NCBI RefSeq assembly: GCF_050920415.1
Contig: NZ_CP169309.1
Length of the DNA stretch: 64,000 bases
From: Escherichia coli
GTDB taxonomy: Bacteria; Pseudomonadota; Gammaproteobacteria; Enterobacterales; Enterobacteriaceae
Direction: 5' to 3' (one strand)
In this document: piece after piece, positions 27,712 through 29,074 of the stretch
How positions within the stretch are numbered: position 1 is the first letter of the stretch
How the letters are laid out: each line of letters opens with the position of its first letter
The notes under the pieces: model-generated
The model's input: only the letters and a program-made list of their open reading frames with translations
Told to the model about the DNA's origin: nothing
Database searches by the model: none
Translations under genes and position numbers: made by a program

Positions 27712-27962
27712 ACTTCAATTTCCAGTTCAGGCGCATAAATATCATTTACTTTGCCAACCAGTTGAAGCGCTGCACCCGGACGTTTTAATACTTCTGCCAG
27801 TGCTTCTTTACTTTCCGTTGCCACAATTCGCGTCAGATAGTTATGTGCCGGGGCGACTTTATTATCCATCGCCATTTCATTGATAAATTTGTTGTAGGCG
27901 GTCTGATTTGGCTCAAAAATAATATCCACACCACAAACACACAGTTTAATTTGTTCCATCAC
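27702..27962 (-). CDS. Tail assembly chaperone (P2 gpE / lambda gpG analogue), 0-frame product
   Basis: 86-aa ORF directly upstream of the tape measure gene, ending 6 nt after a slippery heptamer. Confidence 0.7.
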   Translation of the reverse strand: MMEQIKLCVCGVDIIFEPNQTAYNKFINEMAMDNKVAPAHNYLTRIVATESKEALAEVLKRPGAALQLVGKVNDIYAPELEIEVKN

Positions 27963-28245
27963 TCATACTCTCTCTTAAATTAATTTCGTCCACTAACTGA
28001 TTATGACGCGCAGCGCACTGGCCATAAATTTCAGGATAAATTGTCAGTAATTCCGCTGCGTCTTTTCCTGTCGTACCGTTCAGGCGCGGCAGCTGCGTGG
28101 TGCATTTAGTTTTCAGGTTTTCCTGATAACGCACGTTCGGTACCGGCTGCGGCGCTGTTGTACATGCTGACAAACTCATCAGACAGACAACGATTGGTAA
28201 AAACGGGCTTAAGTATTTCCGTGCGTATCTCTCGCGGTGCCACAT
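27946..28245 (-). CDS. Outer-membrane spanin (Rz1-like lipoprotein), out-of-frame overlap with the i-spanin gene
   Basis: Signal peptide with lipobox LSAC then Pro-rich segment; overlaps the 3' end of the Rz-like gene in another frame. Confidence 0.6.
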   Translation of the reverse strand: MWHRERYARKYLSPFLPIVVCLMSLSACTTAPQPVPNVRYQENLKTKCTTQLPRLNGTTGKDAAELLTIYPEIYGQCAARHNQLVDEINLRESMSDGTN

Positions 28246-28444
28246 TTTTTAACGCCTCCAGTTTATCTTCCAGCGCTCTGGCCGAATCACTGGCAACACC
28301 CTGCATTGCTTTTCGCGATTCATTACCGGCCACCTGCGCCGCTGTATTGATTGCCAGCTCTAAGCTGTCACGCCGCCAGTCAGCGGTCAGCCAGCCCCAG
28401 ACAAACGCCAGTGCCACCACAACCAGCCACCGCCCGCTGCTCAT
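28106..28444 (-). CDS. Inner-membrane spanin (Rz-like)
   Basis: 112-aa ORF with N-terminal transmembrane helix and helical remainder; follows the endolysin gene. Confidence 0.6.
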   Translation of the reverse strand: MSSGRWLVVVALAFVWGWLTADWRRDSLELAINTAAQVAGNESRKAMQGVASDSARALEDKLEALKNVAPREIRTEILKPVFTNRCLSDEFVSMYNSAAAGTERALSGKPEN

Positions 28445-28785
28445 CAGCGCACCCCGTTATGTTCCAGACTGAAATGATTGCCATCCGGTCTGGATTTGAA
28501 GCGTCCGCCCCAGGCACCACCCAGTGATTCCCAGTATTCCCCCAGTGGCAGATAATCTTCTGTGCGGGTTTTGTACTGACCGTTCACGAACAGATTGAAA
28601 TCCACCGCCAGCCGCTGGGTGTGCAGACTGTTAGAAATGCCGCTGCCTTTCTTCGCATTCAGCGCGGCCTGTTCTGGTGTACGGTAAGCCTCACCGAACG
28701 TCAGTCTGTAGCCATGTTCTTCTGCCCAGTGGATCAGACTGGCCACCATGACTGTGAATAATTGCTGTTTTTCACTCAGGGTCAT
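28444..28785 (-). CDS. Endolysin, peptidase M15 (L-alanyl-D-glutamate peptidase-like)
   Basis: About 113-aa product from MTLSEKQQ with M15-like zinc-peptidase motifs; start is uncertain. Confidence 0.6.
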   Translation of the reverse strand: MTLSEKQQLFTVMVASLIHWAEEHGYRLTFGEAYRTPEQAALNAKKGSGISNSLHTQRLAVDFNLFVNGQYKTRTEDYLPLGEYWESLGGAWGGRFKSRPDGNHFSLEHNGVR

Positions 28786-29074
28786 TTGTCTTGTTCCCGT
28801 TCTGCTTTCCCGCTGCACGTCTGCGCAGCCACACTTCCACCGCCTGATAACCGGCAATCCCCAGCGCCGCCCCCAGCCCCTGAATGGCCAGCGGGCTGGC
28901 ATCCGGGATCTGAATCAGCACCGCCCCGGCCACCACTGAAACCAGACTGCCCAGGATCACGCGACCGGCAAACAGGCGCGGCGTTATGGGGTCATTACTG
29001 GTCAGCACATTGCCGATGGCAATCAGTGCGCCAATGATCAGCAGCGAATAAAGGCTCTTTTCATGCTCCTGCAT
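28772..29074 (-). CDS. Holin
   Basis: 100-aa ORF with two or three hydrophobic helices and a charged C-terminus, immediately upstream of the endolysin gene. Confidence 0.6.
   Translation of the reverse strand: MQEHEKSLYSLLIIGALIAIGNVLTSNDPITPRLFAGRVILGSLVSVVAGAVLIQIPDASPLAIQGLGAALGIAGYQAVEVWLRRRAAGKQNGNKTNDPE

Follow-up and report, generated by a model that had tools for sequence, protein, structure and literature searches.

The interval 27946..29074 of the window (the whole 64,000-nt stretch of Escherichia coli DNA that we analyzed) runs, on the minus strand, exactly from the stop codon of an o-spanin gene to the ATG of a holin gene. Its reading frames are uninterrupted (0 frameshifts and 0 internal stops), and the four open reading frames (ORFs) that it holds make up a lysis cassette set among phage tail genes. 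The cassette and its surroundings are listed below in the direction of reading.

29539..29084, minus strand: tail tube, 151 aa, the upstream neighbour (PHROG 1182 'tail protein', 5.7e-75)
29074..27946, minus strand: lysis cassette of four genes (holin, M15 endolysin, Rz-like i-spanin, Rz1-like o-spanin)
29074..28772, minus strand: holin, 100 aa (Pfam Phage_holin_3_2, PHROG 175 'holin')
28902..28786, minus strand: extension of the endolysin frame upstream within the holin gene, spurious and not part of the endolysin
28785..28444, minus strand: endolysin, 113 aa, predicted soluble M15 (LAS-type) zinc peptidase (Pfam Peptidase_M15_4, PHROG endolysin families)
28444..28106, minus strand: i-spanin (Rz-like), 112 aa (PHROG 1152 'Rz-like spanin', 3.5e-35)
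28245..27946, minus strand: o-spanin (Rz1-like lipoprotein), 99-aa precursor (lipobox, PHROG 2425, PHROG 456)
27959..27702, minus strand: tail assembly chaperone, analogous to gpE of P2 and gpG of lambda, adjacent to the cassette on its downstream side (PHROG 1214, 1.6e-40)
27711..27511, minus strand: predicted programmed -1 frameshift site A_AAA_AAC (27711..27705) with its -1 frame extension (six-frame reading)
27514..25547, minus strand: tail tape measure protein, 655 aa (PHROG 28, 2e-98; TIGR01760)

The initial annotation had described a complete set of holin, M15 endolysin, i-spanin and o-spanin, flanked by the tail tube gene on one side and by the chaperone and tape-measure genes on the other. 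In agreement with this, each of the four proteins was matched by Pfam or PHROG lysis families, and the flanking genes were identified by PHROG and by tblastn against HP1. The lysis-family HMM matches of the cassette proteins were well above chance level; among NCBIfam models, none matched the four lysis proteins above its curated cut-off, and the sole match was a sub-threshold one of the o-spanin to the equivalog P2_Rz1 (LysC), which at 19.3 bits did not reach the cut-off of 27.

The holin matched Pfam Phage_holin_3_2 (PF04550) at 7.2e-39, with 86/86 of the model covered, and PHROG 175 at 1.4e-39, and was 54% identical to P2 gpY (E 2e-35), the gene Y product, which the P2 record describes with the words 'holin; essential for host cell lysis'. 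Its hydropathy profile showed two strongly hydrophobic stretches (residues ~7-26 and ~34-57) and a weaker, Gly/Ala-rich third (~61-83), a transmembrane segment of only moderate Kyte-Doolittle hydrophobicity, followed by a basic C-terminal tail with 5 K/R among the last 20 aa. A GGGG Shine-Dalgarno-like run lies 5′ of the ATG. From the sequence match, size, membrane segments and adjacency to the endolysin, we assign the predicted holin to the P2 gpY family (Phage_holin_3_2). Two elaborations were rejected: a dual-start holin, as there is no second Met near the N-terminus, and a lysA-type antiholin, as no homologue of P2 lysA is present in the cassette.

The endolysin gene, the start of which overlaps the holin 3′ end by 14 nt, encodes a protein matched by Pfam Peptidase_M15_4 (1.5e-10) and by four PHROG 'endolysin' families. 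Among nine homologues, R35, S53, H55, D62, D101 and H104 were invariant, and the motifs H55-x6-D62 and D101-G-N-H104 reproduce the zinc-ligand and catalytic pattern of M15 (LAS) peptidases. A single-sequence search against the PDB gave no match; structure matches were found only with a profile built from nine sequences, which retrieved solved L-Ala-D-Glu peptidases (8q2g, 2.5e-9; 2vo9, 2.6e-7; ChiX 5opz, 3e-5). Judged by these distant structural relatives (best E 2.5e-9), the enzyme is probably an L-alanyl-D-glutamate endopeptidase. Its N-terminus is not hydrophobic (KD19 maximum 0.64), and the protein is predicted to be cytoplasmic and holin-dependent rather than of the SAR or signal-peptide type; because it carries neither a signal nor a SAR sequence, it would need holin holes to reach the periplasm.

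The ATG of the i-spanin gene and the TGA of the endolysin gene overlap by one base (TGATG). The encoded protein has a moderately hydrophobic N-terminal membrane anchor at about residues 5-21, RWLVVVALAFVWGWL (KD maximum 1.42), and aligns with the annotated i-spanins of Sasha, Paul and vB_YenM_324 and with P2 LysB; the motif KPVF-N-C-SDE is conserved, and Cys86 is present in 6/7 aligned sequences. The o-spanin gene begins inside the Rz gene in the +1 frame relative to Rz, with a GGAGG Shine-Dalgarno 8 nt 5′ of its ATG at 28245, shares 140 nt with the Rz 3′ end and then continues for 160 nt past the Rz stop. The out-of-frame Rz1-like lipoprotein with an LSAC lipobox noted at the outset was thus confirmed: the signal peptide has four K/R in its n-region, the predicted lipidated residue is Cys28, and the mature protein is predicted to be 72 aa with two additional Cys. 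Cys28 and Cys77 are invariant in seven homologues, which include P2 LysC and the manually annotated o-spanins of Sasha and Paul, and Cys28 aligns with o-spanins bearing LipoP-annotated SPII sites. Homologues were found in 150 phage records, and the match to PHROG 2425 (7e-33) was stronger than that to PHROG 456 'Rz-like spanin' (1e-6). The o-spanin belongs to a separate family (PHROG 2425), common to 9NA/Sasha and phiEco32-like phages, and is not a LysC equivalog. Together the two spanins form an overlapped pair (P2 LysB/LysC-like), as that architecture is defined in PMC6139136, and not an embedded one; a lambda-like embedded Rz1 was rejected.

On the upstream side, the tail tube stop and the holin ATG are 9 nt apart, and tube homologues occur in 76 phage records. 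Downstream, the chaperone start overlaps the o-spanin end by 14 nt, and the protein, named 'putative phage tail assembly chaperone' in RefSeq, is 44% identical to HP1 orf26. The A_AAA_AAC heptamer is placed directly before the chaperone stop, the -1 extension ends on the tape-measure ATG (ATGA), and heptamer and stop are kept in ev040, ESSI-2, HP1, SW3, vB_YenM_324, phiO18P and K139; PGAP calls only the end of the -1 frame, as a 27-aa 'DUF6890' fragment. The tape measure protein matched TIGR01760 with 55 bits (cut-off 28.8).

Gaps or overlaps between adjacent genes were ≤17 nt, and this spacing points to co-transcription of the cassette with its neighbours. A scan of positions 25000..35400 for sigma-70 promoters and intrinsic terminators gave counts at or below the shuffle expectation, and within the cassette no minus-strand candidate was convincing. 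The P2-type activator site TGT-N12-ACA gave 10 matches against 15.5 expected, all of them away from both the cassette and the scaffold/terminase intergenic region. Separately, we observed that the scaffold and terminase genes are separated by DNA with a perfect dyad (35204..35228, GTTCGGT-N11-ACCGAAC), of which the prophage has no other good copy.

The nearest phage relative was Escherichia phage ESSI2_ev040 (Quadragintavirus, Peduoviridae; NC_049393). This phage, a member of an ESSI-2-related set that was isolated from viromes (PMC6969025), carries the same genes in the same order at 95.7% nucleotide identity over 2.1 kb, and RefSeq labels a holin, an endolysin and an Rz-like spanin in it. 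Its holin is 99% and its spanins 96% identical to those of the cassette, while the endolysin allele is 86% identical to that of ESSI2_ev040 and 92% to that of ESSI-2. EC101, an E. coli genome with the same prophage, showed 98.7% nucleotide identity over 2.1 kb, with endolysin and o-spanin 100% identical. We are highly confident that the element is an intact ESSI2-like prophage of E. coli (Quadragintavirus-like, HP1-subgroup Peduoviridae).

Three other readings concern the genes themselves. That the four ORFs encode tail assembly or structural proteins, an outcome the initial annotation had named as contrary to its own claim, would suit their place inside the tail operon and the bare 'hypothetical protein' that PGAP gives to both spanins; however, homology placed 4/4 in lysis families and 0 in tail families, and the gene immediately downstream, which has a conserved -1 frameshift site, is the true chaperone, so that we give this reading practically no credence. 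As to the endolysin start, over which the initial annotation had voiced doubt, the frame is open from ATG 28902, and a 152-aa form could be imagined in which the extension serves export or regulation. That form was rejected and is very improbable: no Shine-Dalgarno was found before ATG 28902, the extension is Arg/Trp/Gly-rich and non-hydrophobic, and the starts of nine homologous endolysins from unrelated phages all fall within 3 residues of the conserved MxLSEKQQLF. In vB_YenM_324 and SW3, which have no in-frame start upstream of this motif, translation past the preceding stop can first begin in this frame at the initial codon of M(T/K)LSEKQQLF, and RefSeq annotates the identical short gene of 342 nt; the internal ATG 28785 (113 aa) was thereby settled as the start. 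Finally, the cassette could be a silent remnant of a defective prophage that no longer works, and the cargo genes at both ends of the element do vary, differing from those of ESSI2_ev040. Yet the late genes compared are all full length and 77-100% identical to those of ESSI2_ev040, an integrase, a cI-like gene, a replication gene and portal/terminase-sized ORFs are present, and the cassette is free of frameshifts and stops, which makes such decay unlikely.

The remaining alternative concerns position. The initial annotation had noted that the gene order is unlike that of P2, which is correct: P2 carries Y-K-lysA-lysB-lysC between X and R, and its tube gene FII lies 57 nt from E, whereas here 1.1 kb of lysis genes separates tube from chaperone. 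It had concluded that the late region was rearranged or mosaic, and one could accordingly suppose that the cassette recently moved or was inserted into the tail cluster of a P2 derivative, a supposition to which the homology of the holin to P2 gpY also lends itself. The synteny comparison spoke against local rearrangement. By tblastn, 19 of the 24 late-region genes compared matched HP1 in the same order (sheath 52% identity; tube, HP1 orf24, 58%), while among the tail proteins only the tail fibre assembly protein matched P2. The late order of sheath, tube, lysis genes, chaperone (-1 frameshift), tape measure and baseplate is the organisation of the HP1 subgroup, and the slot between tube and chaperone holds named lysis genes in HP1, K139, phiO18P, phi3, SW3, vB_YenM_324, ESSI-2 and ESSI2_ev040 (eight Peduoviridae genera), with unnamed genes there in C5a. 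Phages with lysis genes in the slot have homologous tube, chaperone and tape-measure genes on its flanks, the HP1 hol and lys genes lie between the tube gene and orf25 and have been tested experimentally (PMC7312051), and the split between HP1 and P2 tails has been described as ancient (PMC10612066). A rearranged P2 derivative is thus hardly to be expected. Given the colinearity with HP1 and the same slot in the named phages, lysis genes between tube and chaperone are the norm in HP1-subgroup Peduoviridae and not a local rearrangement; "mosaic" holds for the content of the slot, with its gpY-like holin and its endolysin and spanins without a tblastn match in the P2 and HP1 regions compared, but not for the late gene order. 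Overall, 27946..29074 is almost certainly an intact lysis cassette of an ESSI2-like prophage, in the position standard for the HP1 subgroup.

The families suggest how such a cassette may act. The four genes would be transcribed late within a long head-tail operon and translationally coupled to their neighbours through overlaps of 1-17 nt. The holin would build up in the inner membrane and then trigger, forming large holes through which the 113-aa endolysin could pass into the periplasm and cleave the stem peptide of the peptidoglycan, the L-Ala-D-Glu bond being the likeliest target, with a Zn site of H55, D62 and H104 together with D101. The i-spanin would be anchored by its N-terminus in the inner membrane and the o-spanin lipoprotein by Cys28 in the outer membrane, and once the wall was removed the spanin complex would fuse or disrupt the outer membrane, releasing virions.

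The slot combines a P2 gpY-type holin, an M15 peptidase and a spanin family common to 9NA/Sasha and phiEco32-like phages. We lean toward the view that the tube-chaperone junction of HP1-subgroup Peduoviridae is a fixed 'lysis slot', in which unrelated cassettes and even single genes are swapped while the flanking tail genes stay colinear. Across the genera with this endolysin its identity was 82-92%, while the holin reached 43-63% and the i-spanin 44-62%; because the endolysin is far better conserved than these neighbours, its sequence suggests that this gene alone spread horizontally, separately and recently.

RefSeq already contains the cassette in this position and with a near-identical sequence, and lysis genes placed as in HP1 have been published before (PMC7312051), so little new biology is involved and the practical worth lies in annotation. 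Besides the endolysin start, now settled at ATG 28785, this concerns the o-spanin, which RefSeq/PGAP records for this group of phages systematically shorten, here to a 'hypothetical' ORF of 189 nt with its start beyond the lipobox, so that the lipoprotein signal is lost; the chaperone frameshift product is likewise under-annotated. The slot also offers a clear example of cassette swapping amid conserved tail genes.

Compared with known systems, the endolysin resembles the small M15/LAS endolysins (the Ply500 catalytic domain of Listeria phage A500, 2vo9; 8q2g; Serratia ChiX, 5opz; the T5 endolysin, 2mxz), which are likewise single domains of ~110-140 aa and share with it the motif H-x6-D...D-x-x-H, a likeness seen only by profile. 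With P2 the cassette shares the holin family and the overlapped +1 architecture of lysB/lysC, and the lipobox Cys of LysC aligns, but LysB and LysC are only 24% identical to the prophage spanins, the annotated P2 endolysin K gave no tblastn match to the M15 peptidase, and the P2 cassette stands ahead of the tail completion genes. The cassette proteins of HP1, a pinholin and a SAR muramidase (lysozyme) (PMC7312051), gave no tblastn match to those of the prophage, which has a P2 gpY-type holin and a predicted soluble M15 peptidase. Nevertheless, the whole late region of HP1 is colinear with that of the prophage, its tail proteins are 30-60% identical, and its cassette (hol, lys and the Rz-like orf25) occupies the identical position, after the tube gene orf24 and ahead of the chaperone gene orf26 and the tape-measure gene orf27.

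The four lysis genes of this prophage were found on the minus strand, between the tail tube gene and the chaperone and tape-measure genes, where the initial annotation had placed them, and the limits of the interval 27946..29074 are exactly the holin ATG and the o-spanin stop. The genes of the region are as follows:

30663..29536, minus strand, tail sheath (375 aa)
29539..29084, minus strand, tail tube (151 aa)
29074..28772, minus strand, holin (100 aa)
28785..28444, minus strand, endolysin (113 aa)
28444..28106, minus strand, i-spanin (112 aa)
28245..27946, minus strand, o-spanin (99 aa)
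27959..27702, minus strand, tail chaperone (85 aa)
27514..25547, minus strand, tape measure (655 aa)

Only 9 nt separate the tube stop from the start codon of the holin, whose 3′ end overlaps the endolysin gene by 14 nt; the endolysin stop and the i-spanin start have a single base in common (TGATG), and a second 14-nt overlap joins o-spanin and chaperone. From this tight packing we infer that the cassette would be co-transcribed with the tail genes. No promoter-like or terminator-like sites in the cassette rose above shuffle expectation. A search for the P2 activator motif was uninformative. The sole perfect dyad, GTTCGGT-N11-ACCGAAC (35204..35228), lies in the divergent scaffold/large terminase intergenic region, has no second good copy in the prophage, and may be a late-activator binding site; in E. 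coli EC101, an ogr/Delta-like gene is annotated adjoining the portal gene.

The reading of these genes as a lysis cassette is confirmed by Pfam and PHROG family matches, by the invariant residues of the endolysin site and by the o-spanin lipobox. The holin covers the full Pfam model Phage_holin_3_2 (7e-39), matches PHROG 175 “holin” and shows 54% identity with P2 gpY (E 2e-35); its hydropathy profile has two strongly hydrophobic segments and a weaker third, followed by a basic C-terminus. The RefSeq record of Cronobacter phage ESSI-2 (L002) has no annotated gene between tube and endolysin, and tblastn located a holin homologue there (9525..9782, 58% identity to the window holin).

The endolysin matched Pfam Peptidase_M15_4 (1.5e-10) and, among the PHROGs, several families of endolysins. 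When it was aligned with eight homologues (Cronobacter, Salmonella, Yersinia, Pseudomonas, Aeromonas, Vibrio and metagenomic phages), R35, S53, H55, D62, D101 and H104 proved invariant, which is the H-x6-D...D-x-x-H site of LAS/M15 enzymes, and the alignment profile retrieved solved L-alanyl-D-glutamate peptidases (8q2g, 2.5e-9; Ply500 2vo9, 2.6e-7; ChiX 5opz, 3e-5). Its N-terminus is without a hydrophobic stretch, and its release should therefore depend on the holin. The endolysin start had been flagged as uncertain, and the frame indeed stays open as far as ATG 28902, within the holin gene. That codon is ruled out, and the start shown to be ATG 28785, by four observations: 28902 has no Shine-Dalgarno sequence before it; all homologues start within three residues of the M(T/K)LSEKQQLF codon; in Yersinia vB_YenM_324 and Salmonella SW3, this conserved codon is the first in-frame start after an upstream stop; and the RefSeq gene is identical in extent (342 nt).

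The window endolysin is 92% identical to that of ESSI-2, 86% to that of Escherichia phage ESSI2_ev040 and 100% to that of EC101, whereas the flanking genes are 96–99% identical to ESSI2_ev040 and 58–82% to ESSI-2. Since the endolysin is closer to ESSI-2 while all of its neighbors are far closer to ESSI2_ev040, these identities indicate allele exchange inside the cassette, a local recombination patch at the endolysin.

The i-spanin matched PHROG 1152 “Rz-like spanin” (3.5e-35) and could be aligned with annotated i-spanins. The o-spanin ORF, preceded by a GGAGG Shine-Dalgarno sequence, starts within the i-spanin gene in the +1 frame and ends 160 nt beyond its stop, which is the “overlapped” architecture of which P2 is the type example (PMC6139136). 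An out-of-frame Rz1-like lipoprotein with lipobox LSAC had been proposed, and the predicted protein bears this out, with a basic n-region and a lipobox Cys28 that is invariant in an alignment including P2 LysC and the o-spanins of phages Sasha and Paul, which were annotated manually and have SPII cleavage sites cited in their records. Homologues occur in 150 phage records. RefSeq/PGAP instead calls a 189-nt ORF in ESSI2_ev040 (L001 10467..10655), EC101 (L003 4467..4655) and vB_YenM_324 (L010 4895..5083), whose equivalent start in the window, GTG 28134, is residue 38; the vB_YenM_324 gene named “O-spanin” starts at Met52, past Cys46. These starts lie after the lipobox Cys, and the lipoprotein signal is therefore lost from the annotation; the full ORF with its lipobox is open in the window and in all three of these genomes.

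Downstream, the chaperone gene ends ...GTA AAA AAC TGA, so that a heptamer A_AAA_AAC (27711..27705, minus strand) abuts the stop, and the −1 frame is open for 64 more codons, ending at the tape-measure ATG (region 27511..27959, minus strand). This is a predicted programmed frameshift of the P2 E/E+E′ (lambda G/GT) type. Heptamer and stop are kept in ESSI2_ev040, ESSI-2, HP1, SW3, vB_YenM_324, phiO18P and K139; PGAP calls just the last 27 codons of the −1 frame, as a separate “DUF6890 family protein.”

The 2.1-kb region shares 95.7% identity with ESSI2_ev040 (Peduoviridae, Quadragintavirus) and 75% with ESSI-2; among 5,426 complete E. coli genomes, 38 carry it, the best at 98.7% identity. Infant gut viromes were the source of the ESSI2_ev phages, which are temperate coliphages (PMC6969025). 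The chromosomal flank is that of E. coli, with ybiT-mntR 100% identical to strain MFDS1022581, and the prophage occupies the mntR/mntS interval, as in EC101. Its tail-side end, adjoining mntR, carries cargo genes at 15410..16984 and 17110..17808 (both plus strand); one encodes a 524-aa AAA ATPase that matches two PADLOC candidate defence models (HEC-04, 3e-33; ATPase-Toprim_I-B, 1e-20) and the other a protein of 232 aa resembling serine O-acetyltransferases. Just one of the 5,426 genomes has 80% or more of this 3.3-kb stretch, and other strains differ at the spot: EC101 has DprA, for example, and 160-11H1 a serine O-acetyltransferase gene next to one for a reverse transcriptase. A 497-aa ORF (44772..46265, plus strand) matching PADLOC candidate defence family PDC-S49 (3.4e-106) separates the position of the cI-like repressor (43819..44403) from the integrase gene (46312..47352); because these two genes are adjacent in EC101, we count it as an additional cargo gene of the window prophage.

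The late region had been described as rearranged or mosaic relative to P2. The P2 order does differ, with lysis genes between X and R and the tube followed directly by E/E+E′, and the only proteins with tblastn matches in P2 were the six for head and packaging, the holin and the one for tail fibre assembly. In HP1, tblastn matched 19 of the 24 genes compared from the late region, in preserved order (sheath 52%, tube 58%, chaperone 44%, baseplate J 50% identity). The tail modules of HP1 and P2 are reported to be deeply split (PMC10612066). HP1 carries hol, lys and the Rz-like orf25 in the same slot, with tube (orf24) on one side and chaperone (orf26), then the tape measure, on the other, a placement reported in an experimental study of that cassette (PMC7312051). 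Named lysis genes also fill this slot in K139, phiO18P, Pseudomonas phi3, SW3, vB_YenM_324, ESSI-2 and ESSI2_ev040, and in Pseudoalteromonas C5a it holds a regulator and four unnamed genes. There is thus nothing unusual in the cassette position, and novelty is confined to annotation corrections. The region is colinear with HP1 rather than rearranged, and “mosaic” holds for the content of the slot, which is variable while the slot itself is fixed. The enterobacterial members (the window prophage, ESSI2_ev040, ESSI-2, SW3 and vB_YenM_324) have in common the gpY-type holin, the M15 endolysin and the spanin family of the window cassette, with cross-genus identities of 82–92% for the endolysin against 43–63% for the holin and 44–62% for the i-spanin. 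In HP1 the holin is an unrelated pinholin and the endolysin a SAR muramidase (PMC7312051); K139 shares the HP1 lysozyme (37%), phiO18P combines a P2 K-type endolysin (50%) with a methyltransferase gene within its cassette, and K139, phiO18P, phi3 and C5a add a DksA-like zinc-finger gene after the tube. The late region is the standard organisation of the HP1 subgroup, with an exchangeable cassette.
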